From Elusimicrobiota bacterium (GTDB taxonomy: Bacteria; Elusimicrobiota; UBA5214; JBBAAG01): a stretch of 64,000 nt of DNA. The notes under the pieces are model-generated. The model was given only the letters and a program-made list of their open reading frames with translations, did no database searches and was not told the DNA's origin. The first letter of the stretch is position 1. The number at the start of each line of letters is the position of its first letter. This document shows, in pieces, positions 4,790 to 40,777 of the stretch. The translations under genes were made by a program, and so were the position numbers. The stretch spans positions 453-64,452 of the forward strand of contig JBBAAG010000002.1 of assembly GCA_041658405.1 (NCBI GenBank), given 5' to 3'.

Positions 4790-5275
4790 ATGAAAAGTTT
4801 AAGAGTCGTTCTGGTAGCAGCCTTAGCATTAGCAATAGCAGCGCCGTCAGCGTTTGCATGGTATCTTTATTGGCCAACAAGCGGACGTATCAGCAGCGTA
4901 GTTGGCTGGAGAATCTGTCCTTTCCATGGCCGTGAATATCATCCCGGTACAGACATTGCAGCGCCCGGTGGACGCCGGATTGGTTCAATCGCAGCGGGTA
5001 GAGTTACTTCAGCGGGTTGGGCAGGCGGATACGGGAAATCAGTGAATATGAGCCACGCAAGCGGATATACAAGCCGGTATTCACATATGAGCTCAATCTC
5101 AACACGTCGCGGTGCATATCTTGCATCAAAAGGTAAAGTTGGTGCAGTAGGAACGACCGGCAGCAGCACTGGTAACCATCTTGATTTCGGGATCAAAAGA
5201 TATGGTTCAGTAAAGGCGCCGAGATGTTCTAAAGGGCAGTATAAAACAGCCGGAACAAGAATATATCTCCGGTAA
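4790..5275 (+). CDS. secreted M23-family (lysostaphin/LytM-like) peptidase, paralog 1
   Basis: AGGAGAAAGAAAATG RBS and a signal peptide MKSLRVVLVAALALAIAAPSAFA. M23 motifs HPGTD (HxxxD), SRYSHMS, and GSSTGNHLDFGI, where HLD replaces the canonical HxH. Confidence 0.75.
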   Translation: MKSLRVVLVAALALAIAAPSAFAWYLYWPTSGRISSVVGWRICPFHGREYHPGTDIAAPGGRRIGSIAAGRVTSAGWAGGYGKSVNMSHASGYTSRYSHMSSISTRRGAYLASKGKVGAVGTTGSSTGNHLDFGIKRYGSVKAPRCSKGQYKTAGTRIYLR

Positions 5276-5303
5276 TAAGATAGAATAAGTTAGTTAACGA
5301 AGG

Positions 5304-5340
5304 CTCCCTTGGTTGAAGAAACCAAGGGAGTTTTTGTTTG
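5304..5340 (+). terminator. rho-independent terminator
   Basis: Stem CTCCCTTGGTT / AACCAAGGGAG, loop GAAGAA, then TTTTTGTTTG. Confidence 0.7.
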
Positions 5341-5423
5341 TATAGCATTAAAGGTAGTTAAAGTAATTCAACAGTTGTATTGAAAATATGTATAGAGCAT
5401 ACTGTAGAATATCGTGCAATACA

Positions 5424-5459
5424 AGTGTGAAATAAGTGTGCAAATTACACAGTTATTCT
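5424..5459 (+). promoter_or_regulatory. AGTGTGaAAt / AGTGTGCAAA boxes plus ACAGTTATTCT upstream of M23 copy 2
   Basis: Counterpart of 4611-4659. The two boxes are spaced 11 nt apart. Confidence 0.35.
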
Positions 5460-5631
5460 GCTAAACCGACAAAACATTATTTTTAGCCATCACAATATTT
5501 GTATTGTAATATAATCAAAATAACGATAATTGCGGTATACCCCACCCACTCTTTTGTGTATTGGCACGAATATTGCAACAATGGTTGTTCGAGAAACAAA
5601 AAGAAACTGGAAAGAAAGAAGGAGAAAGAAA

Positions 5632-6111
5632 ATGAAAAGTTTAAAGATCGCCTTGGTAGCAGCGTTAGCATTAGCAGTAGCAGCGCCGTCAGCGTTTGCA
5701 TTATATTGGCCGGTGTCAGGACGTATCAGCAGCATAGTCGGCTGGAGAATCTGTCCTTTCCATGGCCGTGAATATCATCCTGGTACAGATGTCGCAGCGC
5801 CTAGCGGGCGGAGAATCGGTTCAATAGCGGCAGGAAGAGTAACATCAGCGGGTTGGAACGGCGGATACGGGAAATCAGTGAGTATGAGCCACTCAAGCGG
5901 GTATACAAGCCGGTATTCACATATGAGCTACATCTCAACACGCCGCGGTGCATATCTCTCAGCAAAAGGTAAAGTCGGTAATGTCGGAACGACAGGTAGC
6001 AGCACTGGTAACCATCTTGATTTCGGGATTAAGAGATATGGTTCAGTAAAGGCGCCGAAATGTTATAAAGGGCAGTATAAGACAGCCGGAACAACATTGT
6101 ATCTAAGATAA
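5632..6111 (+). CDS. secreted M23-family peptidase, paralog 2 (tandem duplicate)
   Basis: It has the same 65-nt leader, RBS, signal peptide and motifs as 4790-5275. The coding sequence is near-identical with scattered substitutions. Confidence 0.75.
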   Translation: MKSLKIALVAALALAVAAPSAFALYWPVSGRISSIVGWRICPFHGREYHPGTDVAAPSGRRIGSIAAGRVTSAGWNGGYGKSVSMSHSSGYTSRYSHMSYISTRRGAYLSAKGKVGNVGTTGSSTGNHLDFGIKRYGSVKAPKCYKGQYKTAGTTLYLR

Positions 6112-6144
6112 TAAATGCTTAAGTTGTTAAGAAGTTTTACAAGG

Positions 6145-6180
6145 CTCCCTTGGTTAAGAAAACCAAGGGAGTTTTGTTTG
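6145..6180 (+). terminator. rho-independent terminator (copy of 5304-5340)
   Basis: Same stem CTCCCTTGGTT/AACCAAGGGAG followed by a T-run. Confidence 0.7.
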
Positions 6181-6189
6181 CCAATATTT

Positions 6190-7128
6190 ATGTGGAGTAT
6201 GATTTTATCAGGTATATCATGGATTAACGCTGAAGATATGGGAAACGTAAACATTAAAAGTTATATTAAAAACGATACCATTCTATCCATAACAATAGAA
6301 TGTCCAAAGAAATATAATCAAAAAGAAGTTGTAATCTGCAACGGAGATAAAACTTTGTATTCTTCTAATTTCACAAAAATCAGCGGGACATCAACAGTTA
6401 TATCCGCAGAAATACCATATCCTGTGCGTTCACTAAAATACGAACCTCTGAAAGTGTACATTTCAAGCGCTTTAGCGGGAACAATAGATTATCTTAAGCT
6501 ACCCTATGAGTATGTAAATGCAAAACCTTTAAGGTACATCAAGAATATCCGCGAATTTGAGAAACAGGATGCTATAAATCCGCCGGAGGAAGGTTTAATA
6601 CTATTTCTTGGTAGTTCAAGCATTACCCGCTGGAAGAGTGTGTATGCTGATATGTCACCGTTAAAAGTTCTCAACCGCGGGTTTGGCGGATCACGGAGCG
6701 ATGACTTACTTCAGTATTTCAATCGCGTGGTTTTGCCGTATAACCCAAAAACTATTGTGTATTACGAAGGCGATAATGATATTGGCGGTGGAAAAACTCC
6801 GGAGCAGTTACTGAATAATTTTAATGAATTTGTTAACCTTACCCGCAAGCATATACCCGGGTGCAGTAAGATCTTTTTTGTTTCAATAAAACCAAGCCCG
6901 GTACGTGAAAAAACATGGCTTAACTCGCAAAAAGCTAATCAACTAATACTGGAGTATACAAAAACAACAGTGGATGTTGAGTTCATAGATATTACGGCTG
7001 TTATGTTTGATAAAAATGGGAAACTGCGTACGGATATTTTTGCTAAAGATAACTTGCATATGAATGAAAAAGGGTATGAACTCTGGGCCAGTATTATAAA
7101 ACAAAGGTTGTTGGGATTAAATAAGTAA
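6190..7128 (+). CDS. SGNH/GDSL-family hydrolase
   Basis: Block I LFLGSSSITRW, block II NRGFGGSRSDD, block III YYEGDNDI, block V DNLHMNEKGY. The start is placed after the terminator; the tracked ORF start at 6115 overlaps it. Confidence 0.7.
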   Translation: MWSMILSGISWINAEDMGNVNIKSYIKNDTILSITIECPKKYNQKEVVICNGDKTLYSSNFTKISGTSTVISAEIPYPVRSLKYEPLKVYISSALAGTIDYLKLPYEYVNAKPLRYIKNIREFEKQDAINPPEEGLILFLGSSSITRWKSVYADMSPLKVLNRGFGGSRSDDLLQYFNRVVLPYNPKTIVYYEGDNDIGGGKTPEQLLNNFNEFVNLTRKHIPGCSKIFFVSIKPSPVREKTWLNSQKANQLILEYTKTTVDVEFIDITAVMFDKNGKLRTDIFAKDNLHMNEKGYELWASIIKQRLLGLNK

Positions 7129-7189
7129 CCGGCTTCCCTGTTCCTGGTAATTAGAAATATTCCTGTAAAATTTTATATAATAAGATGTT

Positions 7190-8641
7190 ATGAAAAATAC
7201 ATTGGTTATCACGTATATATCTATCTGGATTCTTTTCTTCACATCCGGGATTTATTCTGAGGAAATGAAGTTTGACCTCAGTTCTGCGGTTAAGCTCGGG
7301 CTGAAAAAAAACAGGTCGGTACTGCTTTCCGTAAAAGATTCGTGGTTACAGGCGGAGATCTCGCATTTACAAACAAAAGCGCAGTATAAGCCGCAACTGA
7401 ATCTAACAGGTAATATTAAACGCGCATCAAGTTATGATGTCAGCAGTGCTATAACAAGTTATACCGAAGAAGGCGCTGAACCCAGTGATGCTACTACATC
7501 GGTCTCCGGTGATTCTGATAACATCGGGTTAGCGTTAACCCAACAATTCCCTATTCTACAAACCGGCGGGAAATTGTCTTTAAATTGTAACTATCTATAC
7601 GAAACACAATCTGACTACCCTAATACTTCACGGCTTGGCATGGAATTTACGCAACCACTTTCCCCAGGGCAGGTGTTAACCCAAAAAAGTGAGTGGAAAG
7701 ACGCAGAGGAAAGTTATTTTACTGCGGAGTTAAATTATAAATCATCACAGGAACAGTTGATCTACGATATTATCAATCAATACATAGGTTTAGTGAAAGC
7801 TGAGAAAGCGATTGAACGTATCCGGAAGTCTACTGATGCAGGGAAGTCGTTGTTGGATATCGCAAAACTAAGGCATCAAGCCGGTGAAATTGCGGAAATT
7901 GATATGTTAAACCTGGATATCCAGAATAAACTTGATGAGGATACGATTATCACGCAGGAACGCGCGTTAGCACAGCAGAGAGATGAGTTTGTCAAACTAC
8001 TTGGGTTGACAAAGGGAACTACAATTATGCTTGATCCGGAAATTAGCATCAAAACATACGAGGTGTCGTATAAAGACGCGCTGGAATTATCAAAGAAAAA
8101 CCGGGCGGAGTATAAACAACAAATATTGGGGATAGACGACGCGTTGGTGAACCTTAAACAAACAAAGTATAGTAATTGGCCTGATATGTCTCTTAACGCG
8201 AATTATTATCTTGAACAATTAAATACAGGCTGGACACCGCAATGGGAAGTTAATGCTGAGTTTACATTACCATTATACGCCGGCGGGATTTATAAACATA
8301 ATGTTAGAAAAGCGGAAAGCAGTTACAACCTTGTCCGGCAGTCGTTTGAAGAGTTTGAGGAAACTGTTGAACGCGAACTTGACGAAATATTTTCGCAGTT
8401 AGAAATTAATAAACGCAGGATTGAAGTATTAAAACAGGCACTTAAGGCATCCGAGGAAAGTTTGAAAGTTTCAGAGCTTAGGTTTAAGATGGGCATAATT
8501 TCGTATAACGATTATTCGCAGGATATGGAACGTTACAACCAGGCAGAACAGACTGTTACGGATACGGAACTTGAAATTGTAATGCTTCACGTACGCCTGC
8601 TAAAATCAGTGGGTAAATTGTTGGAAGTATATAGTAACTGA
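7190..8641 (+). CDS. TolC-like outer membrane efflux protein
   Basis: 483 aa with a signal peptide and an OEP-family two-repeat coiled-coil architecture. It is the first gene of the efflux operon. Confidence 0.65.
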   Translation: MKNTLVITYISIWILFFTSGIYSEEMKFDLSSAVKLGLKKNRSVLLSVKDSWLQAEISHLQTKAQYKPQLNLTGNIKRASSYDVSSAITSYTEEGAEPSDATTSVSGDSDNIGLALTQQFPILQTGGKLSLNCNYLYETQSDYPNTSRLGMEFTQPLSPGQVLTQKSEWKDAEESYFTAELNYKSSQEQLIYDIINQYIGLVKAEKAIERIRKSTDAGKSLLDIAKLRHQAGEIAEIDMLNLDIQNKLDEDTIITQERALAQQRDEFVKLLGLTKGTTIMLDPEISIKTYEVSYKDALELSKKNRAEYKQQILGIDDALVNLKQTKYSNWPDMSLNANYYLEQLNTGWTPQWEVNAEFTLPLYAGGIYKHNVRKAESSYNLVRQSFEEFEETVERELDEIFSQLEINKRRIEVLKQALKASEESLKVSELRFKMGIISYNDYSQDMERYNQAEQTVTDTELEIVMLHVRLLKSVGKLLEVYSN

Positions 8642-29744: not shown

Positions 29745-30527
29745 TTACTTCAACCCCAAAACGTCTTGCATATCATATAATCCCGCAGGTTTTGAGGTAA
29801 GCCATTTCGCGGCGTATACCGCGCCGGAAGCAAACGCGTTACGGCTATGCGCGCGATGCGTTATCTCTACGCGTTCCCCTGCCCCAACGAACATAATCGT
29901 GTGGTCCCCAACGATATCGCCTCCGCGAACCGCGTGGACGCCGATCTCAGTTTTTTTTCTCGCCCCAACCAAGCCTTCACGGCCATAGACCGCGTCAGCC
30001 TTGAGGTCGCGGTTGAGCGTATCAGCAATAATCTCTGCAAACCGCGCAGCAGTACCAGACGGCGCGTCCTTCTTTTGGTTGTGATGCGCTTCAATAATTT
30101 CTACGTCGTAACCCTCAAGTTTTTGCGCAACTTCGCGTATGGTTTTGAATAAAATGTTCACTCCGATACTCATATTTGGCGCATGAACCACCGCGATTTT
30201 TGCGCTTGCAGTTTTTACCGCCAAGAGCTGGTCCGGGTTCAACCCGGTCGTGCCGATAACAATTGGTTTGCCAAGTTTCATAGCGGTTTCCGCGTGTTCT
30301 ACTGACGCTGTGGGGGATGAAAAGTCGATCACAACGCCGCTTTTGGCAAACGCTGCGTCAATGTTATCCGTAATTTTTACTGCGGTGCCGATAACCGTGT
30401 TTCCAACCGCCGGGCTGGCAGATGCTTCCACCGCGCCGACAATCGTAAATTCTTTGTCCGCAACGGCTAACGCGAGTATCCGAGTGCCCATCCGCCCCGC
30501 TGCGCCGCATACTGTTAAACTTATCAT
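29745..30527 (-). CDS. dapB: 4-hydroxy-tetrahydrodipicolinate reductase
   Basis: VCGAAGRMG Rossmann motif and a C-terminal DapB domain. Confidence 0.85.
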   Translation of the reverse strand: MISLTVCGAAGRMGTRILALAVADKEFTIVGAVEASASPAVGNTVIGTAVKITDNIDAAFAKSGVVIDFSSPTASVEHAETAMKLGKPIVIGTTGLNPDQLLAVKTASAKIAVVHAPNMSIGVNILFKTIREVAQKLEGYDVEIIEAHHNQKKDAPSGTAARFAEIIADTLNRDLKADAVYGREGLVGARKKTEIGVHAVRGGDIVGDHTIMFVGAGERVEITHRAHSRNAFASGAVYAAKWLTSKPAGLYDMQDVLGLK

Positions 30528-30586: not shown

Positions 30587-30700
30587 CTATTTTTCCACAT
30601 ATCTCTCAAAATACTTTCTTACCTCAGTATTTGTAAAATGTACATAACATCCCTTCAAACCTCTTGAAAGCGAGGTTCTATAAATGTTTTTAATATACTG
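30587..30700 (-). pseudogene. C-terminal remnant of a second DUF2075-family gene
   Basis: The minus-strand translation is YIKNIYRTSLSRGLKGCYVHFTNTEVRKYFERYVEK*. This aligns to the last 36 residues of the intact DUF2075 protein (IIKNTYKTLMTRGTKGCYVYFTDKETEEYFMSRIGK*) at about 50% identity, including KGCYV.FT. A stop lies immediately upstream. Confidence 0.6.
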
Positions 30701-30809
30701 TTAAAATTTATTTACTTTTTGAAGTGTTGGATCTTTTGTTTCATTTATAGCAACCTTTAAAACAACGGTTGATATATATGACTTTTTGTTTGTATCTATT
30801 TGGGGTATA

Positions 30810-32660
30810 TTATTTACCAATTCTCGACATAAAATACTCTTCCGTTTCTTTATCCGTAAAATACACGTAACACCCCTTCGTCCCCCGAGTCATGAGCGTT
30901 TTATAAGTATTTTTGATAATGTTGCCTGCAACTTCCTTCGCTTTCTCAAGATTATCTTCTAGCATCTTCCTGTACCCATTTAACGATTTATCCGTCCTCG
31001 CCCGGTTCGAAGGTACAGTCACAATCTCACCGTCACGGCATAACAAGTCTGGTCCGACAATAACACCGATATAATCAAGTTCCAACCCCTGGCACGTGTG
31101 TATACATCCCGCTTCTGTAACAGACTGAGGGTCGATTATCCATTTGTTCCCGTAACTTTTAAAATTCCATTTTATCTTAAAATCCCATCCTGGTATAACG
31201 ATATCATACGCATCGGGATCCTTAGCACTTACCCAGTTCCAACAGTATCCCGCTACGATACGCGCTTTATTGTTAATCTGATTTTTCTCAAATATCATAT
31301 CTCTTAGCTCCACTGGGCTTTTCATCACACGAAAGTCGTATTCTTGACGAGACAAATACATATTCGCTGTTGGCCGTTTCTGCAAAGTATTATCCAGCCA
31401 TGCAAGGTATCCATCGGAACCGTTACACCTGAACTGCGAGGGTAGATCCATCTTAATCACCACTGCACCCAACTTTTTGGCCCAACACACTATTTCGTCA
31501 GTATCCCCAATATCTTTCAATGTAACCTTCTGATCTTCGTCTAAGAAGAATACGCACGTCCTAGCAGCATTGATTAACTCCTTTACCTGGTTTTCTCCTG
31601 AATTCTGAAACATCCCACTTCGTTCGTTCAACCTATGCGCTTCATCTACGATCAGACAATCGAAAACATTTGTGGCACAGTCAACAAACTTACCTGAACC
31701 ACAAAAAAGGTTAGCAATCCTTGTCTTCTTCATAGTCCCCGTGAGTTTCACTTCGTACACCGTCCGCGGAGCGGAATTTTTTGTAACATACCTCGCGTTG
31801 TACTGTTTCTGGGTAGAAGCAACTAATAAATTCACAGCTACGACTGACTTACCGGTACCTGCGCCACCGTTGACAATCAACACTTGTTTTTTTCCGTTAC
31901 GTATCATTTCTAACACGGTTTCGTACACTAACTTCTGTTCGTCTATCAGTACAAACTCTTTATTCCCTTTCATCAGAGAAGCCAACGAGTCTGCTAAGTT
32001 TTTTGACGGTTTTATCCGCCCGCTTTCGATGAGGAAAATACATTCAGACTTGTCTCCATATTTTACGAACTGTTTTATAAACTCCCTGAGTTTTATCGCA
32101 TCGTTTTTAAGGAATACAGGCGCTTTCGATAAATGTTCCTGATAAAAAGAGTTGGTGATAACGTCATCTGGTATGTAGTTGTGTAGGTACGAACAGGGTT
32201 TCAATGAGATGCTGTAATCTAGCACCGCTTCGTTATAATCTTCTAGCAATGCAGCGTACGACCAGGCCTGGTAGCTCGGGTGTTGGCATTCATGCATACC
32301 GCCATTAACAAACGTTTTGACAACTGCATCCTGTTGAGTTAGTTTAGCGGACTCCCATTGTTTGAGTTCAATTATGATCAAATGGGGTGCGTTTTTGGTA
32401 TCCTGCCCGCTGATGATAAAGTCTATCCTCCTTGAAGAAGACGGTATGACATACTCTATCGCTACTCCACAATCCGTTGGAATATCAGGATCGCTAAGCA
32501 CGGTTTCCATGTACCGCAAAGAGTTTTGATACGCTCTAATTTCTGCAGGGGAATAACCCGATACATGTTTTAATTTAAGAGAATTCACTACTTTATCTGT
32601 GAGAGTATTATTTAAAACATCATTCGAAAACTCTGTTTTTGTTGCCGTATAAATAATCAT
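30810..32660 (-). CDS. DUF2075-family protein: N-terminal PD-(D/E)xK nuclease-like domain plus P-loop/DEAH helicase-like ATPase
   Basis: RIDFIISG...IIELKQWE (D...ExK), Walker A GGAGTGKS, motif II DCLIVDEAHRL. 616 aa. Confidence 0.7.
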   Translation of the reverse strand: MIIYTATKTEFSNDVLNNTLTDKVVNSLKLKHVSGYSPAEIRAYQNSLRYMETVLSDPDIPTDCGVAIEYVIPSSSRRIDFIISGQDTKNAPHLIIIELKQWESAKLTQQDAVVKTFVNGGMHECQHPSYQAWSYAALLEDYNEAVLDYSISLKPCSYLHNYIPDDVITNSFYQEHLSKAPVFLKNDAIKLREFIKQFVKYGDKSECIFLIESGRIKPSKNLADSLASLMKGNKEFVLIDEQKLVYETVLEMIRNGKKQVLIVNGGAGTGKSVVAVNLLVASTQKQYNARYVTKNSAPRTVYEVKLTGTMKKTRIANLFCGSGKFVDCATNVFDCLIVDEAHRLNERSGMFQNSGENQVKELINAARTCVFFLDEDQKVTLKDIGDTDEIVCWAKKLGAVVIKMDLPSQFRCNGSDGYLAWLDNTLQKRPTANMYLSRQEYDFRVMKSPVELRDMIFEKNQINNKARIVAGYCWNWVSAKDPDAYDIVIPGWDFKIKWNFKSYGNKWIIDPQSVTEAGCIHTCQGLELDYIGVIVGPDLLCRDGEIVTVPSNRARTDKSLNGYRKMLEDNLEKAKEVAGNIIKNTYKTLMTRGTKGCYVYFTDKETEEYFMSRIGK

Positions 32661-32671
32661 TATAATCCCCT

Positions 32672-33016
32672 CTATAGCTGCGTATATTTTGTATGTTTCC
32701 CTTTTGATTTCCGAACAGGATACTTTGTTTGATTCTTTTTAAGTTTTTTTGCCAAGGCTATCAAGATATCAATTTTAAGATCATGACTCATCAACAATAC
32801 CCAATACAGAACATCAGCCAGTTCATCCCCTATTGCATCTTTGTGTTGTATTACGTATTTCTCAATCTCTTCATTATTTTTCCATTGAAAATGTTCAAGA
32901 ACTTCAGTTGCCTCAAGAACAAGCGACAACGCAACGTCTTTTGGATTATGAAACTGTTTCCAATCACGTTTTGTACGGAATTCAATAATTTTCTTAGTGA
33001 TACTTTTTAGATTCAT
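32672..33016 (-). CDS. MazG-like nucleotide pyrophosphohydrolase (small all-alpha NTP-PPase)
   Basis: 114 aa with EATEVLEHF and DELADVLYWVLLMSHDL motifs. Its stop is 11 bp before the DUF2075 start. Confidence 0.65.
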   Translation of the reverse strand: MNLKSITKKIIEFRTKRDWKQFHNPKDVALSLVLEATEVLEHFQWKNNEEIEKYVIQHKDAIGDELADVLYWVLLMSHDLKIDILIALAKKLKKNQTKYPVRKSKGKHTKYTQL

Positions 33017-33125
33017 AGTTCCCGTGTCTAAAAAACACTGTTTATCGCATCAGTGAAAGCACAGGAATTTGTCAGACGAATAGGAGTAAGGACTTTTATC
33101 GTTCGAAGATTTAATCGTAACTCGA

Positions 33126-35090
33126 CTAATTACTTTTGTTCAACATGTCTTTTGCTATCTTATATTCTTTTTTAAAATCTATCCCAATATCCAAGTTGGG
33201 GTCTATTGTTTGAAACGCTACATACATAAACGCTAATAATTGTAAGCCCGAAAATTCTTTGTCAGGGATGCTTGTTAAATGATATTTTTTCTCGGTATCC
33301 AAAGGATCAATTCCTTGAGTCCCGATTTTGGCTATCTCAAATCCGGCTTTTGTGATTTCTTCATTGGATTTGTCTTGAAAGTATTGTAATGCAGAAAGAC
33401 AATACATTACTGTAGCCATGTGTTTAGGAGATTGTTCAGAAAAAGAGACGTTATTCTTTGGATTAGTTTTTTCAACCGAGTCAATGAAAGTTAATGAAGC
33501 AGGATAGTTTTTACGATATTCGTCTTCCGAAACTATAGAAAAATAGGATGCTAAATTCAATTTCTTCGCCCAATTGTTTATCAATTCGTATTCCATTGCG
33601 GGCCTATGCATATCCTTGTTTTTGAAATATTCTTTGTAAAGTTCGTTTGATATGCGTAATTGTTGTTGCGTAGGATTAAATTTATAGATCAAATCAATAC
33701 CAAATAATTCTTTAAATTGCAGCGCGTTTACGATATTCAATATTTTGCTGGCATCAGTGACCAATGGAGGTATGATTTCTGCGGCTCTTGTGTCTGTTAC
33801 TGCCTTTATTCCTTCAGAAATTAAATTGTGTAACGACAAAAATTGATACGGCCTTAAATCCGGATGAGTATTGTATAGATAATTCTCAATAAATAAATCG
33901 ATAGGCGTGTTAAAGATTTGCCGGTTTATTCCATCAAACAAAGCCGAAATAAAGTCAGATATGTTTTTGTCATTAAGCCCTTGTTGATTTAATCCATTAA
34001 TTGTTTTTTCTGTCGAAACAATAAATGCTTTCTTGTGTTCATTAGTGGAGATGAAAAGTTTATTTGCCCCCACCTTTCGTGCTTCAAGGTTAAAATATAG
34101 ATGAACCAGTTCATGCATCACGAGATGCTCGACAGCGGGATAATCGTTTTTATAACGTATTACATGCGAACCCTTATTATAATTTTCAGCGATCTCTATT
34201 TTTGCAGCAGTTGGGATAGAAGCGTCTTCAACAATTTCAATTGGTTTATTCGATTGCTCTTCAAGGATTGATCTATACTGACGAAATATTTCTTTTCCAT
34301 CAATATGTCCAATATACTTAGTTGCAGTTTCCTGAGCAAGCGTTAGGATGTGGTTGAATAACTGGTTGCTACTACATGTAGGGGGGGGGGAATTTGTCAT
34401 GCTTTGAATAGCAAAATCAAACGCCTTCAAATAATCTTTTTTTATATCGTTTATTAAACCTAATGCAAAAGTTGTATGCGGATACTTTGGGTCAATCTCA
34501 TATGCCATCTCAAAATATTTTATTGCTTGTTCAATTTTTCCGGACTGCATAAGATTTGCGCCCAGATTATTGATAGCAATATTATCCCGAGGATTTATCT
34601 TAATTGCCTGGTCATAATATTTGGTCGCAGATGTAATATCGTTTTTATGTTTTGAAAGAATGTTGCCCATCATGATAAGTGCAAAACAATTTTTAGGATC
34701 CCATTTTAAAGCGTCTATTAAACAATTCAATGCTTCTTCTGAATTCCCTTCATCGGAATATATTTGTCCTAACACCCTGTGATACTCTGAATTTGCTGGA
34801 TTTGTTTCTATTAGTTTCATTAAGATTGGTTTAGCATCTCTGAATCTTCTTTTTTCACACAAGCTTATCACTGTGTCAAAATCTTTTTTCTGCGTAGCTA
34901 TTAAATTAATATCAATCGAAATTGAAACAATATTTTTAATTTCATCAATTTCAACTTTAGGTTTATATGGGCCAAAAGTGTAATAACTAATCAACTCTTT
35001 CCTCAACTTATCAATATTACTACCGTCCATCACTTTGGTTTTCGGAAAAAGCTCAAACAAAAAATTGTCTAGTTTGTGAATAATAATCAT
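33126..35090 (-). CDS. TPR-repeat protein with a central HExxH (zincin-like) motif
   Basis: 654 aa with about 5 TPR repeats N-terminally and HLVMHELVHLYF. An in-frame C10 tract encodes SPPP. Confidence 0.6.
   Translation of the reverse strand: MIIIHKLDNFLFELFPKTKVMDGSNIDKLRKELISYYTFGPYKPKVEIDEIKNIVSISIDINLIATQKKDFDTVISLCEKRRFRDAKPILMKLIETNPANSEYHRVLGQIYSDEGNSEEALNCLIDALKWDPKNCFALIMMGNILSKHKNDITSATKYYDQAIKINPRDNIAINNLGANLMQSGKIEQAIKYFEMAYEIDPKYPHTTFALGLINDIKKDYLKAFDFAIQSMTNSPPPTCSSNQLFNHILTLAQETATKYIGHIDGKEIFRQYRSILEEQSNKPIEIVEDASIPTAAKIEIAENYNKGSHVIRYKNDYPAVEHLVMHELVHLYFNLEARKVGANKLFISTNEHKKAFIVSTEKTINGLNQQGLNDKNISDFISALFDGINRQIFNTPIDLFIENYLYNTHPDLRPYQFLSLHNLISEGIKAVTDTRAAEIIPPLVTDASKILNIVNALQFKELFGIDLIYKFNPTQQQLRISNELYKEYFKNKDMHRPAMEYELINNWAKKLNLASYFSIVSEDEYRKNYPASLTFIDSVEKTNPKNNVSFSEQSPKHMATVMYCLSALQYFQDKSNEEITKAGFEIAKIGTQGIDPLDTEKKYHLTSIPDKEFSGLQLLAFMYVAFQTIDPNLDIGIDFKKEYKIAKDMLNKSN
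34381..34390. repeat. G10 homopolymer; C10 on the coding strand of the TPR-HExxH gene
   Basis: Counted directly. It encodes S-P-P-P in frame. Confidence 0.8.
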
Positions 35091-35101
35091 TTTTTATTAT
35101 A

Positions 35102-35509
35102 AATTTCTTTCAAAACATTTTCTTTAACACAATTTATTATACATTATCGCTTCACATCGGGACAATACTGGTGTTTATCCGTAACAAGCCGAAAGACCGG
35201 AAAAATACAATATTGTTTATCAACGCAGCGGAGTGTTACGAGTCCGTGAAAAACCAAAACAAGCTGCGGGACGAGGATAACACAAAAATTGTTTAAGTAT
35301 TTGAGGAAAACAAAAACGTGGACCGTTTCGCGCGGGTCGTGGAATTAGACTAAATCCGGGGTAACGAGTATAACCTCAACATCAGCCGGTACGTGGATAT
35401 TACTGAACCGGAACCGGTCGTTGACGTAAAGGACGCGCTTGCGAAACTGCGCGAACTTGAGAAACAACGCGATGCCGCTGAGAAGAAAATGAACGAGTAC
35501 TTGAAATAG
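35102..35509 (+). pseudogene. hsdM: hsdM (type I R-M methyltransferase) 3' remnant with two in-frame stops
   Basis: A single frame reads ...IFFNTIYYTLSLHIGTILVFIRNKPKDRKNTILFINAAECYESVKNQNKLRDEDNTKIV* VFEENKNVDRFARVVELD* IRGNEYNLNISRYVDITEPEPVVDVKDALAKLRELEKQRDAAEKKMNEYLK*. This matches the conserved HsdM C-terminus (LFYNTGI..ILV..KNK, VLFIDAS, NQN.L.DE.I.KIV, YNLNISRYVD). TAA stops lie at 35294 and 35351. The 5' roughly 350 codons are missing. Confidence 0.7.
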
Positions 35510-35609
35510 CTGGGGTATGACTAGGATAATAAAACTTGACAAAATAAAGGAAAGTGGTAATAATATATACTGATACATCTAAAATGGATGTGTGAGTATA
35601 TAATTAGAT

Positions 35610-36203
35610 ATGAAAAATATTGATATAGATAAGCCTTTAGTAATGTTAGGAGTGTTGCTTGAAGCCAATAATACGGTATCGCCCATTAACTTGGTGGTAT
35701 GCGGCGGTGCGGCGCTTATTATTACTGGTACGATAACCCAGAGGGTGGTTACAAAAGATGTGGATGTTATTGCAATAATTTCAAACAATTTAGTTGATAT
35801 TATAGAATGCGCAAAATTACCGGAAGCCGTAATTGATGCAAAAGACAAAGTAGCGGCTAACTTGGGGTTAGATACTGATTGGTTGAATACACAGTTTTCA
35901 CATATAGTCAAAGACGGGTTACCGAAAGGGTTCGAATCAAGGTTGATCCCAAAAAAATACGGTAAGTCTTTGACAGTGTATTTTGTTGGCAGGGAAGACC
36001 AAATATGTTTCAAATTACTTGCAGCTGCGGATTCTAAACTAACTAAACATTTTGATGATTTACAGGAGTTGAAGCCCACAGCAGTAGAAATTCAAAACGC
36101 TGTTGACTGGATACTCGGACACGAATCAAGAATAAATTATAAATATGATATTAAATACATTGTAAGAAGGCTAGGATATGAAACAATCGCTGATAGAATT
36201 TAA
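35610..36203 (+). CDS. minimal nucleotidyltransferase-fold protein, AbiEii/DUF1814-like
   Basis: LVVCGGAALIITGTITQRVVTKDVDVIAII is a GG...DxD NTase signature, close to AbiEii GGTAL...S.DIDF. 197 aa. Confidence 0.55.
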   Translation: MKNIDIDKPLVMLGVLLEANNTVSPINLVVCGGAALIITGTITQRVVTKDVDVIAIISNNLVDIIECAKLPEAVIDAKDKVAANLGLDTDWLNTQFSHIVKDGLPKGFESRLIPKKYGKSLTVYFVGREDQICFKLLAAADSKLTKHFDDLQELKPTAVEIQNAVDWILGHESRINYKYDIKYIVRRLGYETIADRI

Positions 36204-37203
36204 AACAGCGTATATCTATAAAATTACCAACATCCTCTGGCGGCAATGGACGGCACTCGGGGTTCCCGGTACTATTGATGTTGAAGATAAAGGGGTTGTG
36301 GATCCAGAAGCGTTGATCCCCGCAACCTGCCTGTTTGGCCGTTACGACAGCCGGTTGTTTGACGAAATGTTGAACTGGCTGTACATTAACGGTAAAGTTG
36401 TCAATATCCAGAGATTGAAAAACATTATTGCAAAAGAAATGTTTGTAAACGCGGATATTATTCCGGCAATCGCCGAGTTTTTGAATACTACGAGTAAGTA
36501 CCGGTTCTTGAAGTGGAAAAAAATACTGCCTGCTGCCAATAATGTTACGGACAAAAAAAACTTTTTTTATTTCCGCGATGGGAACGCTATGGAACAGTTT
36601 GGCCCGGCTGACGCGATATTCGAAAAGTACGGATACCTGCGCGGGCCGGTGAAGTTGAGAGAGCACACTTTGCCGGTATATTATCGGTACGGCAGCGATG
36701 TTATATTCAAACTTCGCGCGTTATTCGGGGTACGTACTCGCGCGGACATTGTTTTGTACTTATTAACACACGAGTACGCGCATCCCAGGGAAATCGCGCG
36801 AGATTTGTATTACGCTCCTAAGTCGGTACAGGATATTCTTATCGAAATGTCGAATTCCGGGCTCGTTAATATGCGGCCGGAAGGAAAAGAAAAACAGTAT
36901 TTCCTTGATAAAACCAGATGGCATGAATTCCTGAAACTACACGATAGGCATGTGGAGTGGATAACCTGGCCGGCAGTGTTCCGCGCATTAGAGATTATAT
37001 GGTTAAAAATCAGCGGGGAGAAAGCCGACGGGTATAGCAAATTGTTATTATCGTCGGTACTACGTGAGGTTATGGATGAAGTGAAATATAAAATTGAAGC
37101 CGCTGGGATTAACAATGTTTTGACGAATCCCAAGTTTTATCTTGGGGAACAGTACGTGGATGTTTTTTTCGCGGATATGAACAGGTTGTTTGAGAAATTA
37201 TGA
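36178..37203 (+). CDS. 341-aa protein with a predicted winged-helix DNA-binding domain, partner of the NTase
   Basis: RADIVLYLLTHEYAHPREIARDLYYAPKSVQDILIEMSNSGLVNMRPEGKEKQYFL looks like a wHTH. Its start overlaps the NTase gene by 26 bp, and its stop overlaps the next ORF by 4 bp. Confidence 0.5.
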   Translation: MKQSLIEFKTAYIYKITNILWRQWTALGVPGTIDVEDKGVVDPEALIPATCLFGRYDSRLFDEMLNWLYINGKVVNIQRLKNIIAKEMFVNADIIPAIAEFLNTTSKYRFLKWKKILPAANNVTDKKNFFYFRDGNAMEQFGPADAIFEKYGYLRGPVKLREHTLPVYYRYGSDVIFKLRALFGVRTRADIVLYLLTHEYAHPREIARDLYYAPKSVQDILIEMSNSGLVNMRPEGKEKQYFLDKTRWHEFLKLHDRHVEWITWPAVFRALEIIWLKISGEKADGYSKLLLSSVLREVMDEVKYKIEAAGINNVLTNPKFYLGEQYVDVFFADMNRLFEKL

Positions 37204-37439
37204 AACTAAAAACTTTTAATACTAGTCATAAAACAAAGAAAACGCCGGCCGGGGAAATCCCAGTGGACTGGGGAACTATTGAACTAAATAAAATAGTGAA
37301 TATAGAAAAGGGTAAAGTTCCAGAATTGATTGAACAACCCGAATGGATGTTTCGTACAGCCAACGGGTATAGTTACGACGAGCTCGAAGCGTTAGCCACA
37401 AAAATTATGGACTTAGCCCGTACGCGGCTCGGGAATTGA
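37200..37439 (+). pseudogene. hsdS: hsdS (type I R-M specificity subunit) remnant, 79 codons
   Basis: ...EIPVDWGTIELNKIVNIEKGK matches the HsdS N-terminal TRD start (P.GW....L.EI....G). It is far too short for a functional two-TRD HsdS. Confidence 0.5.
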
Positions 37440-38155
37440 AAATGGATGAAAAAAGTGTGGTAACGTTTGGTAGCCAAAATATTGAGTTTGGCATCATCCG
37501 CAGCGCCCGGCGAACCATAAGCATCATTGTCGACCCTTACCTTGGCGTCTACCTCCGGGTACCGCGATATATTGGGTTGCCCAAAATCCAGCAAATCGTG
37601 AAAACAAAAGCTAAATGGATTTCTGATAAGATGGAATACATAAACAAGCTTGGCGAGATGCCGAAGAAGAAAGAGTTTGTTTCCGGCGAAGCGTTTTCGT
37701 ACCTCAACCGCCAGTATCGTTTATTGGTAGAAGAGTCAAACATAAATGAAGTGTTTTTTTTGGGTAACTATATCGTTGTAGAAACTACACATATAAACCA
37801 TCCGCGGTTAATCCGTGTGTTAATAGAAGAGTTTTACAAACAAAAAGCGCGGAAAGTGTTGGTGCGGCGAGTAGAGATTTATTGTAAGAAACTCAACCTC
37901 CCGCTCCCGCCGTTGACTGTAGCGAATCAAACCAAGAAATGGGGTAGTTGTAACAGTAAGGGGCATATACGCATAAACTGGCGGATAGTAATGGCGCCAA
38001 TAGTGCTTGTAGACTATATTTCAGCCCACGAGTTGTGTCATGTGATACAAAAGAATCATTCTACAGAGTTTTGGAAACTACTCGGCAGTATTATGCCGGA
38101 CTACGACACCCGCCGTGAACGGTTGCGTAGAGAAGGGTATAAATACTTTTTCTAA
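37436..38155 (+). CDS. DUF45/YgjP-like (M48/SprT-like) metal-dependent hydrolase
   Basis: WGSCNSKGHIRINWRIVMAP...YISAHELCHVIQKNHSTEFW carries WGSC and HExxH...NHS motifs. The family is commonly linked to type I R-M loci. Confidence 0.7.
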   Translation: MKMDEKSVVTFGSQNIEFGIIRSARRTISIIVDPYLGVYLRVPRYIGLPKIQQIVKTKAKWISDKMEYINKLGEMPKKKEFVSGEAFSYLNRQYRLLVEESNINEVFFLGNYIVVETTHINHPRLIRVLIEEFYKQKARKVLVRRVEIYCKKLNLPLPPLTVANQTKKWGSCNSKGHIRINWRIVMAPIVLVDYISAHELCHVIQKNHSTEFWKLLGSIMPDYDTRRERLRREGYKYFF

Positions 38156-38158
38156 ATT

Positions 38159-40777
38159 CTATTTTTTTGCGATATCCGGCAGCATAAACCGCCAGATCGG
38201 CAAGTTAAACTGTTCCCCGGCCGATATCTCAAGTTCTTTAATAACATCTTCCCAGCCGGGTACACCGCGGATTGACTGCGGGGAGAAAGGATTCGCTGCG
38301 AAGTACACAACTTTTCCTTTTCCAAACCCGCGAATCACCACACCAGGATTACCGTCGGATAACGTTGCCGCTACCGTCGCTTTCGGGTCTACCACTTTTA
38401 CGGTTACTGCTGTGTTGGTCCATCCGGTAGAACGGCGTTGGGGTTTGTATAACACAAACTTCTGCCCGGCTTTCATCGATTTCAACGCATCCGTCCCCGT
38501 GCCTACCAACGCATCACTCAGGTTCTCGTCCCCGACTTGCACGCCAAAAAGTTCTTCCTGATACTTCGCGAGGCTCGTTCCGTCCGGCGCTAGGGTAAAC
38601 GCTTTCGAATCCCCGACAACCAGTGTCCCGCCTGCCGAAGTCCAGTCGCGTAAACGTTTGACCACTTCTTCCCGCTGCAGCCACGCGTAAGGAACATAGA
38701 TAATTTTGTAGTCCTCAAGTTTATCCGCGCCATCCAATATTTTATCGTCGGCAATAAACCGGAACCACACGCCAAGTTTTTCGCCTAACCACGCATAAAT
38801 TGTGTAAAGTTCGTCTGCGTAGATCGAGTTAACTTCGCTGAGATTGGTGTCCTGGGATACAAAAATTGCGGTTGATGTTTTCTCAGGAAACTTAATTTTC
38901 TTCATCGTGGTAACAGTTTTTGATACGTGCTTCATCATTTCCCATCGCGGCGGGTCGGTTACCATCGGCGCGTCCGACGCGTAGTATTCTATGCATACCG
39001 CACCGGTCTTCATACACTGGCTTGCCCATTCGCGGATATCTTCCGGCAACGGTTTGTACCCGTCATAAAAAAATGCTTGCATAATAGTCCATACCGGCTT
39101 CCCACCGATATCGTTCAAAAATTTTGTGCCGAACCCGTGGTTATAAATCCCGCGGCCACGGGTACGCCCATGCGCTTCATCCGCCGATGTGGTGTACGGA
39201 TCGCATAACGCGAGGTCCATTGTTTGCGCCATTTTCCAGTAATCGTACATAGACAACCCGCCCATAAACCAGTAGTCGCAGGGTTGCCATAACGCTGTGG
39301 GGTCGATGGATTTCAGCGCGTCTCTCATCCGTATACGCGATTCTACAAATTTATCACTTGCCCAGCGGTTATATGCCAGCCAACTTAACAGCGTGTCAGT
39401 ATCTGGTTTGGTTGTAACAAATTTTGTTCCCTTAGCGACATTAGCTCCTTTTATTGATGGTACTGGGATACCGTATTTTCCGTAGCCATACTTTTCTTTG
39501 ACTTCCACCTGCGCGTTTATCCAAAACGGTATGATATCGATAAATTCAGGCCCTGCCGGGCTTAAAGTCGGCTCGTCCACTCCGCGGTAAACATATACTG
39601 CGCCAGTTTCTTTGTGGGTAGTAACAATATTTTTCAGTGCTTCAATTACGACGTCAACATAAACAGGATCCGCGAGGAATAGGCGTTTTCTCCCTCCAGC
39701 AGCTGGATGTATTACAGGCGAACCTTTCTTTTCTGCAACTGCCGCAACAGGTGAGGTTTCTACCATAAGCCATGATTTGGCATTATACTTTTTGCGGTAC
39801 TCATTGAAAATCGCGCTTGACCCGTGAGGGATCAGCATTCCGCATTCCACTTGTTGGTCAAGGTATGACCGTAAATGTTTTTCGTATGCTTTAGGATCTT
39901 TTTTAAACTGTTCCTGCATATACTGCGGCAATTGTGCGGTGCGTATGTCGTGGTTCCACGACGCGCAAGCGTAGTTTCCCGGTTCGTTGTACAACACTTC
40001 ATCAAAAACCGGACGGTCGCGTTTGACCCCGTAGTTCGTTGGTTCCATATCGCCGTAATCCAGGCGTTCAATATAGTTGTGTTTAAACGATAATGTGGCG
40101 AATCGTTCCGGCTGGTTAAACTTCCCGCGGATGGGAGACCATGTGCTTTGTTCCATAGAATTAGGTACCTGCCGGGTAAAGTTTATGCGGTACTCGTCGT
40201 TAATACCGCCAAAATCGGTGAACGGCATTACAAAGTCGGCTGTCCAAAAGGTTTTATCTATCTTTGTAGAAGTCTTAAAATTACCCTTCCACTTTTCATC
40301 CGATGTTTTCCCGGTTTGGTCTTCAGTAACAACTTCGTGGTTCACATAAACAACGTTTTTGGTGTTTAATACCCAATGAAATGATTCCAGCGGTGAGGGT
40401 GATAAAAATACTTCTACACAATCATCTTTCCAGACATTACTCCCGTTAATTGTTACCGTCGCTTCAATTTTTCTGGGTTCTGGTTCTTCGCATTTGAACT
40501 GAACAAACAACGCGTTATCGTCGTAGGTTACCCTTACTTCAGTCTGCCGTACTGCAAGGTTACCGCTGCCGTTATTAAGATAAAATCCTGTTATTGGTAC
40601 AATTTTATTCCAGTCCGCCTTTTGTCCTTTAGCCAGTTTTGTTATTCCTGTTTTATTAACAACCACGGCATCCGCTTTCTTCACTGCGATAGCTGTTTCC
40701 GCAAATAAGTGTGTTATCTGTGGATATAACAGTGCTGACGTAGCTGCAATAACAACAACGCGTATTAATTTGTTCAT
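38159..40777 (-). CDS. secreted CBM9/DOMON-like + GH42-like protein, paralog of 22487-25813
   Basis: 872 aa with a signal peptide. CBM9-like N-terminus (WNKIVPITGF...LFVQFKCEEPEP...DDCVEVFLSP), KYGYGKYGIP, GGTLVVGDSKAF. Confidence 0.55.
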   Translation of the reverse strand: MNKLIRVVVIAATSALLYPQITHLFAETAIAVKKADAVVVNKTGITKLAKGQKADWNKIVPITGFYLNNGSGNLAVRQTEVRVTYDDNALFVQFKCEEPEPRKIEATVTINGSNVWKDDCVEVFLSPSPLESFHWVLNTKNVVYVNHEVVTEDQTGKTSDEKWKGNFKTSTKIDKTFWTADFVMPFTDFGGINDEYRINFTRQVPNSMEQSTWSPIRGKFNQPERFATLSFKHNYIERLDYGDMEPTNYGVKRDRPVFDEVLYNEPGNYACASWNHDIRTAQLPQYMQEQFKKDPKAYEKHLRSYLDQQVECGMLIPHGSSAIFNEYRKKYNAKSWLMVETSPVAAVAEKKGSPVIHPAAGGRKRLFLADPVYVDVVIEALKNIVTTHKETGAVYVYRGVDEPTLSPAGPEFIDIIPFWINAQVEVKEKYGYGKYGIPVPSIKGANVAKGTKFVTTKPDTDTLLSWLAYNRWASDKFVESRIRMRDALKSIDPTALWQPCDYWFMGGLSMYDYWKMAQTMDLALCDPYTTSADEAHGRTRGRGIYNHGFGTKFLNDIGGKPVWTIMQAFFYDGYKPLPEDIREWASQCMKTGAVCIEYYASDAPMVTDPPRWEMMKHVSKTVTTMKKIKFPEKTSTAIFVSQDTNLSEVNSIYADELYTIYAWLGEKLGVWFRFIADDKILDGADKLEDYKIIYVPYAWLQREEVVKRLRDWTSAGGTLVVGDSKAFTLAPDGTSLAKYQEELFGVQVGDENLSDALVGTGTDALKSMKAGQKFVLYKPQRRSTGWTNTAVTVKVVDPKATVAATLSDGNPGVVIRGFGKGKVVYFAANPFSPQSIRGVPGWEDVIKELEISAGEQFNLPIWRFMLPDIAKK

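Follow-up and report, generated by a model that had tools for sequence, protein, structure and literature searches.

Two intact, overlapping genes, here called A and B, stand between the remnants of hsdM and hsdS in a 64,000-nucleotide (nt) stretch of DNA from an Elusimicrobiota bacterium (GenBank assembly GCA_041658405.1, contig JBBAAG010000002.1, positions 453 to 64,452 of the forward strand; this whole stretch is called the window, and positions are counted from its first letter). What kind of system do they form, and why would they stay open where the surrounding restriction-modification (R-M) genes have decayed? An earlier note, drawn up from the sequence alone, had read the pair as an uncharacterised module of toxin-antitoxin (TA) or abortive-infection type, made of an AbiEii-like nucleotidyltransferase (NTase) and a winged-helix protein. 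This reading is supported by the predicted NTase fold of A and by the co-occurrence of both genes in other genomes, with the function assigned by analogy. We consider A-B to be probably an autonomous two-gene TA or abortive-infection module of the MenAT/AbiE type, in which B would represent a new antitoxin family. The description of two intact open reading frames (ORFs) of 197 and 341 amino acids (aa) that share 26 bp agrees with the coordinates and ATG starts of the genes:

Gene A: 35610..36203, + strand; 197 aa, ATG start; DUF6036 nucleotidyltransferase, MenT1/AbiEii-like, probable toxin
Gene B: 36178..37203, + strand; 341 aa, ATG start; helical N-domain, winged helix and helical C-domain; probable antitoxin and autorepressor
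A/B overlap: 36178..36203, + strand; 26 nt, with B in the +1 frame; the A frame ends ..GYETIADRI before its stop codon, the B frame begins MKQSLIEFK...

Protein A resembles MenT-group nucleotidyltransferases

Protein A scored above the gathering cutoff of the Pfam family DUF6036 (PF19502; 40.5 versus 23.6 bits, E = 3e-10), which Pfam titles "nucleotidyltransferase of unknown function" and of which we found no mention in the literature searched. All 51 aligned homologues of A matched DUF6036 as well, and 33 of them also matched the AbiEii family PF08843 at E ≤ 0.1 upon rescanning (best 4e-7); the window protein itself gave no PF08843 match at E ≤ 1. Profile scans against PADLOC, NCBIfam and PHROG left A without an assignment. 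A profile search collected 548 relatives of about 197 to 200 aa, several of which have precomputed AbiEii matches and one of which is named AbiEii/AbiGii toxin by NCBI.

The GG-x16-DVDV motif that the earlier note had pointed out was found again in the translation and the alignment as G32-G33, 16 residues and D50-V-D52-V, which fits the hG[GS]-x(~15)-D-h-D pattern of the polymerase beta (pol-beta) NTase fold. The fold matches listed for A were MenT1 (8.2), ANT(2'') (8.2), MenT4 (8.2), MenT3/TglT (7.2) and JHP933 (7.1). A single-sequence search of the PDB returned nothing useful for A or B; with the A family profile, 5uvd came first among PDB sequences and MenT1 next at a weak E value of 0.2. 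The alignment behind this weak match places T48-K-D50-V-D52, K135 and D150 over T39-R-D41-V-D43, K137 and D152 of MenT1, and T48, D50, D52, K135 and D150 are invariant in the A family, with T48 two residues before the first Asp. In MenT1, T39, D41 and K137 are required for auto-phosphorylation, with T39 as the phospho-acceptor (PMC11375011). Together with D152, they have been grouped as conserved residues of the NTase fold, several of which were essential for NTase activity in earlier work (PMC11375011).

Thus, given the MenT-group fold and the aligned catalytic residues, A appears to be a minimal MenT/AbiEii-group NTase with an apparently complete active site. As judged from profiles and the predicted fold, it is a pol-beta-fold NTase of the DUF1814 superfamily, and MenT1 is the closest characterised protein. 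The earlier note had placed A closest to AbiEii/DUF1814. The superfamily and the MenT-group NTase assignment stand, but the Pfam family is DUF6036 and the nearest characterised relative is MenT1, not AbiEii. A check of the fold had been set beforehand, and the 197-aa protein indeed models as a DUF1814/MenT-group NTase.

Protein B belongs to a large family built around a winged helix

The predicted model of B (pLDDT 94.2, pTM 0.92) comprises an all-helical N-domain (about residues 1-180), an ArsR/MarR-like winged helix-turn-helix (wHTH; about 185-250) and a helical C-domain (about 255-341). When the model was compared with solved structures, the wHTH was the only segment that matched; neither a family nor a solved fold was matched by the N- and C-terminal helical domains. 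Residues ~185-250 also gave sub-threshold matches to wHTH models of TrmB, ArsR, MarR and Csa3, so that the winged helix seen in the earlier note at about 195-250 is borne out by weak profile matches and the predicted model alike. No Pfam family was reached at its cutoff, NCBIfam returned weak ArsR-type matches only, and the PADLOC matches (CARF3, Csa3 and PDC-M05A) were weak and confined to the wHTH region.

We rejected B as a relative of AbiEi: the AbiEi Pfam families were matched by none of 60 homologues, and the NCBIfam matches were of the weak ArsR type, in line with the lack of resemblance remarked on before. The absence of a HEPN signature, another point of the earlier note, also held. 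No R-x4-6-H motif occurs in the window protein, the N-domains of the 60 homologues share no conserved His column, and no HEPN family of Pfam was matched.

A word index yielded 183 matches to the B family, and an exhaustive HMMER search yielded 2450 representatives at 50% identity, 682 of them below 1e-30. Family members are uniform in length (about 337-346 aa), and their invariant residues cluster in the N-domain (W21, W24, G28, D42, P43, R55, R59, W67, R79, W113, R155 and R180). Rare long members were also seen: P0265 carries a C-terminal DUF5677 and P0315 a Schlafen AlbA_2 domain, while P0327, P0384 and P0389 (up to 1738 aa) have unrecognised extensions. These long proteins could be real fusions or merges of gene calls. 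Fusions of B to HsdS were considered and rejected, since the few long proteins carry DUF5677, Schlafen AlbA_2 or nothing recognisable, and none carries HsdS.

The two genes are kept together, and A is the partner that decays

To follow the pair across genomes, one genome per species (~185,000) was scanned with the B profile; relatives were present in 303 genomes, and 80 loci were kept. An intact A lay directly upstream on the same strand in 62 of the 77 loci with upstream room; 13 loci had a broken A (truncated, internally deleted or frameshifted, each beside an intact B), and 2 had none. The 62 comprise 60 loci classed as full plus L032 and L078, whose full-length A ORFs (193 and 197 aa) have strong profile scores and a shorter overlap. 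Conversely, a set of 80 metagenome contigs fetched with A showed an open B in all 47 loci with downstream room, and the contig end cut B in 32 more; no locus of this set was found to lack B. The co-occurrence that the earlier note had proposed as a check therefore holds almost without exception (62/77 and 47/47).

B was never the broken partner (0/47 A-fetched loci), whereas A was broken or absent in 15 of the 77 B-fetched loci (Fisher p = 0.0005). Such asymmetric decay is expected if A is harmful without B. We regard the asymmetry as supportive, not decisive. It adds family-wide weight to the selection that had been deduced from the open state of the pair in the window, where A and B retain all family-invariant residues and hsdM, hsdS and hsdR are destroyed.

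The order of the genes, with the NTase first and B downstream, is opposite to that of AbiEi-AbiEii, as had been noted. In the great majority of about 70 loci, and likewise in L001 and L002, the stop codon of A lies 26 nt inside B. The hosts of this overlap include Acidobacteriota, Verrucomicrobiota, Elusimicrobiota, Desulfuromonadales, Spirochaetota, Nitrospirota, Clostridia and others, and across these phyla its DNA is near-identical (ATG AAx xxx TCG CTG AxA GAA TT TAA/TAG), with conserved protein ends (..GYExxAxRI for A, MNxSLxEF[KR] for B). The overlap is consistent with translational coupling, and the dual-coding constraint on the end of A and the start of B is sufficient to explain the conservation of its DNA. 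An A-B fusion produced by +1 frameshifting at the conserved (A/C)TT-TA(A/G) was considered and rejected: B stands at the protein N-terminus in all 150 best B-family representatives. By eye, no Shine-Dalgarno-like stimulator for frameshifting was seen in the window sequence.

The tightly linked A-B operon is kept across unrelated genomic contexts. One Verrucomicrobiia contig (L021, 5112-8487) carries two convergent copies of the pair: a first one with a truncated A (5112-5537) followed by B (5512-6528), and on the opposite strand a complete, divergent second one (A 7852-8487, B 6774-7910).

A promoter-like site and an inverted repeat precede A

A gap of 100 nt precedes A, and the promoter-like site that scored best in a consensus scan of the region falls within it, next to an inverted repeat:

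Promoter-like site: 35536..35564, + strand; TTGACA-17 nt-AATAAT, 11 of 12 consensus positions; a consensus match only
Operator-like inverted repeat: 35564..35602, no strand assigned; TATATACTGATACATC / GATGTGTGAGTATATA; between the -10 box and the start codon of A

The arms of the repeat (35564-35579 and 35587-35602) are 16 nt long, 88% complementary and 7 nt apart (z = 4.4 versus shuffles). In 17 of 65 loci, the 120 nt that precede A contain a palindrome with z ≥ 3 versus shuffles, mostly at about 30-48 nt from A; some of these palindromes have perfect arms of 20-21 nt, and their sequences vary between clades. AbiEi is known to autoregulate via inverted repeats at its promoter (PMC3985639, PMC7319586). 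A palindrome at the promoter is the usual layout for an autorepressing antitoxin, and by this analogy B may bind the repeat.

The window holds a decayed copy of a recurrent type I R-M operon

The earlier note had located the pair between hsdM and hsdS remnants, and it does lie between a 3' fragment of hsdM with two stops and an hsdS stub of 42 codons:

hsdM pseudogene: 35111..35521, + strand; last ~28% of the gene with two in-frame stops, from tblastn and the ORF list
Chimeric leftover ORF: 37200..37439, + strand; 79 aa, first ~42 hsdS codons joined in frame to the last ~25 hsdR codons
YgjP-like metallopeptidase gene, intact: 37436..38155, + strand; Pfam YgjP-like, E = 4e-55; the usual last gene of hsdM-A-B-hsdS-hsdR-ygjP

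Positions 35111-35521 correspond to residues 360-498 of an intact 499-aa HsdM (tblastn with HsdM of related operons, 38-42% identity, E = 4e-24). The hsdS stub at 37200-37325 keeps the first 42 codons (PADLOC Specificity_I, E = 7e-5, and tblastn with HsdS N-termini). The tail of the same ORF, ..IMDLARTRLGN, resembled HsdR C-termini (..IMELARARLKD) when compared by eye, and three full-length HsdR proteins gave no tblastn match in the window at E ≤ 0.01. Since an hsdS N-terminus and an HsdR-like C-terminus are joined in one ORF, a single deletion of about 4 kb appears to have taken most of hsdS and nearly all of hsdR, with the 79-aa chimera as its scar. The YgjP-like peptidase gene is intact here although its R-M partners are lost.

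Type I genes accompanied the pair in 54 of the 164 fetched loci, nearly all in the order hsdM-A-B-hsdS-hsdR-ygjP. Where the flanks sufficed for a decision (n = 86), 35 loci were R-M-embedded (~40%) and 51 were not. According to a Pfam scan of the immediate neighbours, 15 of 71 genome loci have HsdM on the upstream side and 16 of 69 have HsdS on the downstream side; ygjP occupies the same position in L007, L041, L049, L051, L058, L073, L077 and L098. Because the same gene order recurs elsewhere, the window holds a decayed copy of this six-gene operon, not a chance insertion. Its decay has parallels: only a short hsdM fragment is left upstream of A-B in the genome loci L008 and L036, so that the loss of R-M genes with retention of the pair is not unique to the window.

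In the B tree, embedded copies are spread over at least five clades, and the B of the window groups with copies from Elusimicrobia and a single embedded one. Gaps between the genes are near zero (0-10 nt) in 26 embedded loci, and in about half of these hsdM and A are 2 nt apart. Pairwise distances of HsdM and B correlate (r = 0.92, Mantel p = 0.001), which shared host phylogeny could also yield. These data modify the idea of the hsdM-hsdS slot as a landing pad for defence cargo: the slot does recur, but its occupation is not an accidental landing, as the pair has co-diversified with hsdM.

Outside R-M operons, the neighbours (Fic, Abi_2, AbiEi_1, AEP-TOTE, DUF4143/AAA_14 and transposases) indicate a defence-island or mobile context; in the complete genome of Geoalkalibacter subterraneus (CP010311.1, about 1,111,600-1,113,200), A-B is flanked by a DUF1015 gene on one side and by pilus genes on the other. 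Most hosts belong to uncultured lineages from the environment. A phage or plasmid origin was rejected: there was no PHROG match, and tblastn found no match in INPHARED phages or PLSDB plasmids. In IMG/VR, one match was present among 2.9 million contigs.

Proposed mode of action and its alternatives

MenT-type NTase toxins act on the 3' ends of tRNAs (PMC7450476, PMC10435456), and by analogy A would most likely add nucleotides there and thereby block translation. As its start codon lies within the last codons of A, B would be synthesised in a coupled manner and at a fixed ratio, and it would neutralise A by direct binding. It may also induce auto-phosphorylation of A at T48, as MenA1 does to MenT1 at T39; antitoxin-induced auto-phosphorylation has been described for MenT1 and MenT3 (PMC11375011) and for AbiEii (bioRxiv 10.64898/2026.01.19.700257), and the invariance of T48 makes it a specific prediction here. 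The winged helix of B would repress the operon at the palindrome that overlaps the promoter. The module would travel mostly inside one lineage of type I R-M operons as an addiction module, as a second-line suicide module that could serve phage defence, or as both. In the window, the R-M genes have been deleted or inactivated, and the presumably self-stabilising pair has stayed with its own putative promoter; its persistence after the loss of the R-M genes fits an addictive module.

Several points weigh against an autonomous TA or abortive-infection module. The toxicity of A, its substrate and its neutralisation by B are proposed by analogy; neither protein is covered by a PADLOC model; and the sequence-profile match to MenT1 is not significant by itself (E = 0.2). 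B is unlike any known antitoxin, with two-thirds of it outside any known fold, and could have another role. The two sets behind the decay asymmetry were ascertained differently (species genomes versus metagenome contigs), and the most conservative counting gives p = 0.047. Moreover, with 2 nt between hsdM and A, about half of the R-M-embedded loci have no space for a separate promoter or operator, which fits a working part of an R-M operon as well as a passenger.

An alternative is that A-B serves a particular lineage of type I R-M systems as a working accessory and is not a self-contained TA system, with the window copy as an orphaned leftover. B could then be a controller that times hsd expression, or both genes together could act as a guard, sensing that the R-M complex is blocked or lost and then releasing the NTase; PrrC, held in check by EcoprrI, is a model for the guard variant. 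The fixed slot speaks for an accessory: in 35 of the 86 assessable loci, the pair fills precisely the hsdM-hsdS interval and hsdR and ygjP come next, with gaps of 0-10 nt (2 nt in half the cases), HsdM and HsdS recur as immediate neighbours (15/71 and 16/69), at least five clades of the B tree contain embedded pairs, and the distances of HsdM and B co-vary (r = 0.92, Mantel p = 0.001). However, the 51 assessable loci without adjacent R-M genes, such as that of Geoalkalibacter, keep both genes and the overlap; many stand-alone copies carry a palindrome of their own, and the window also a promoter-like site, which speaks against exclusivity; the distance correlation is explicable by shared host phylogeny; and the window pair is intact after the loss of the R-M genes. 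We therefore regard a working accessory as unlikely, though it is the alternative to be taken most seriously. A narrower form, in which the pair would be the built-in guard of a distinct type I R-M lineage and not a hitch-hiking TA module, seems to us quite doubtful. The N- and C-terminal domains of B would then monitor the Hsd complex or a phage anti-restriction factor, a block of restriction would release the MenT1-like NTase and shut down translation, and copies that stand alone, that of the window among them, would have outlived the decay of their R-M genes. If true, this would amount to a second line of defence comparable to PrrC, but with a wholly different toxin and sensor.

Two further alternatives fit the data poorly. 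The roles might be reversed, with A as an antitoxin that nucleotidylates and thereby silences a toxic B. MNT-HEPN operons also have the NTase gene first and overlapping genes, which the A-B layout resembles, and B has a large conserved N-domain of unassigned function with invariant Arg, Asp and Trp residues. Yet B has neither an R-x4-6-H motif nor a conserved N-domain histidine and carries a DNA-binding wHTH typical of antitoxins, whereas both Pfam and the fold place A with the MenT toxins and not with MNT; furthermore, A is the partner that is lost or broken beside an intact B, the opposite of what is expected of an antitoxin. On these grounds, that is, the missing motif and His column in B and the decay of A, the HEPN-MNT reading was rejected as highly improbable. 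Alternatively, A could be a harmless metabolic or resistance NTase, for instance an aminoglycoside-modifying enzyme like ANT(2''), which is among its listed fold matches, with B merely as its transcriptional regulator. Against this stands the T-x-D-x-D, K and D set with MenT1-like spacing, which belongs to the MenT group; in addition, the overlap, the strict pairing, the defence-island or R-M context and the asymmetric decay are unexpected for a resistance gene, the carriers are mostly uncultured environmental lineages, and PLSDB plasmids lack the pair. We consider this explanation very unlikely.

Relation to known systems

For a two-gene TA module, MenAT1 of Mycobacterium tuberculosis (MenT1 Rv0078A and MenA1) is the nearest comparison on the toxin side. 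Within the DUF1814 superfamily, MenT1 falls in the COG4849 branch, and A, in DUF6036, shares about 16% sequence identity with it. MenA1, a helix-forming peptide of 7.4 kDa, lacks both a DNA-binding domain and autoregulation (PMC11375011), whereas B is a three-domain wHTH protein of 341 aa. For A, tRNA modification and phosphorylation are predictions by analogy.

AbiE (AbiEi/AbiEii, together with MenAT3 and MenAT4) shares with A-B an NTase of the same clan (in A a probable toxin), a winged-helix partner, inverted repeats at the promoter (in the window a putative one) and mobile or defence contexts. The two differ in size and architecture. AbiEii has about 290 aa compared to 197 aa in A, and AbiEi, which is encoded before the toxin, consists of an N-terminal wHTH and a C-terminal domain, while the wHTH of B is central and its flanking domains are unrelated. 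B also follows the toxin gene with a 26-nt overlap, and the AbiEi Pfam families match 0 of 60 B members. COG4849-COG4861 pairs, which combine an NTase with a predicted wHTH regulator, are uncharacterised, and the two papers that treat them disagree on the gene order (PMC3985639, PMC11375011). They resemble A-B in the tight linkage of a MenT1-type NTase with a predicted transcriptional regulator; B was set beside COG4861 by description only.

Toxins nested in R-M loci offer a further comparison. PrrC is a toxin nested in the type I R-M locus EcoprrI. PIN-like TA toxins (PMC5499597) and TgvAB of the VPI-2 cluster of Vibrio cholerae (PMC12409362) are other toxin or defence genes nested in type I R-M loci. 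The presence of such extra genes inside an hsd operon is shared with A-B, but the proteins are different ones, and A-B is found in one and the same slot, between hsdM and hsdS, in many phyla and co-varies with hsdM. The toxin superfamily and the nesting of toxin or defence genes within type I loci are already known, whereas the B family with its architecture, the toxin-first overlap and the recurrent hsdM-A-B-hsdS operon appear to be undescribed, COG4861 having been compared by description only.

MenT/AbiEii-group NTases are among the commonest bacterial toxin and abortive-infection effectors, and how they are controlled by varied antitoxins is an active question. The A-B pair would add a sizeable branch (about 2450 partner representatives at 50% identity; 303 of ~185,000 species genomes) characterised by a minimal toxin that keeps the phospho-acceptor Thr of MenT1, a large partner with no solved fold matched outside its DNA-binding part, in either of two domains, and a fixed place in one type I R-M architecture. 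It allows one to ask whether antitoxin-induced auto-phosphorylation extends beyond mycobacteria and streptococci and whether R-M-nested toxin modules are addiction passengers or functional back-ups. Cultured carriers are at hand in Geoalkalibacter subterraneus, Trichloromonas acetexigens and Opitutales ASA1.

Neighbourhood of the locus

The pair and the decayed R-M genes lie in a low-GC island (~30600-38200, GC 0.31-0.44) that splits a minus-strand row of lysine-biosynthesis genes; the order is dapB (29745-30527), the island, a gene for a GH42/CBM9-like protein (38159-40777), dapA, dapF and lysA. A second defence-looking cluster adjoins the decayed R-M operon on the - strand (30810-35090). It encodes a 616-aa Schlafen-group-3/DUF2075 helicase with weak PADLOC matches to AbiO and Nhi, a MazG-like pyrophosphohydrolase of 114 aa and a 654-aa TPR protein that has an HELVH (HExxH-like) motif and a weak PADLOC match to PDC-M71B.

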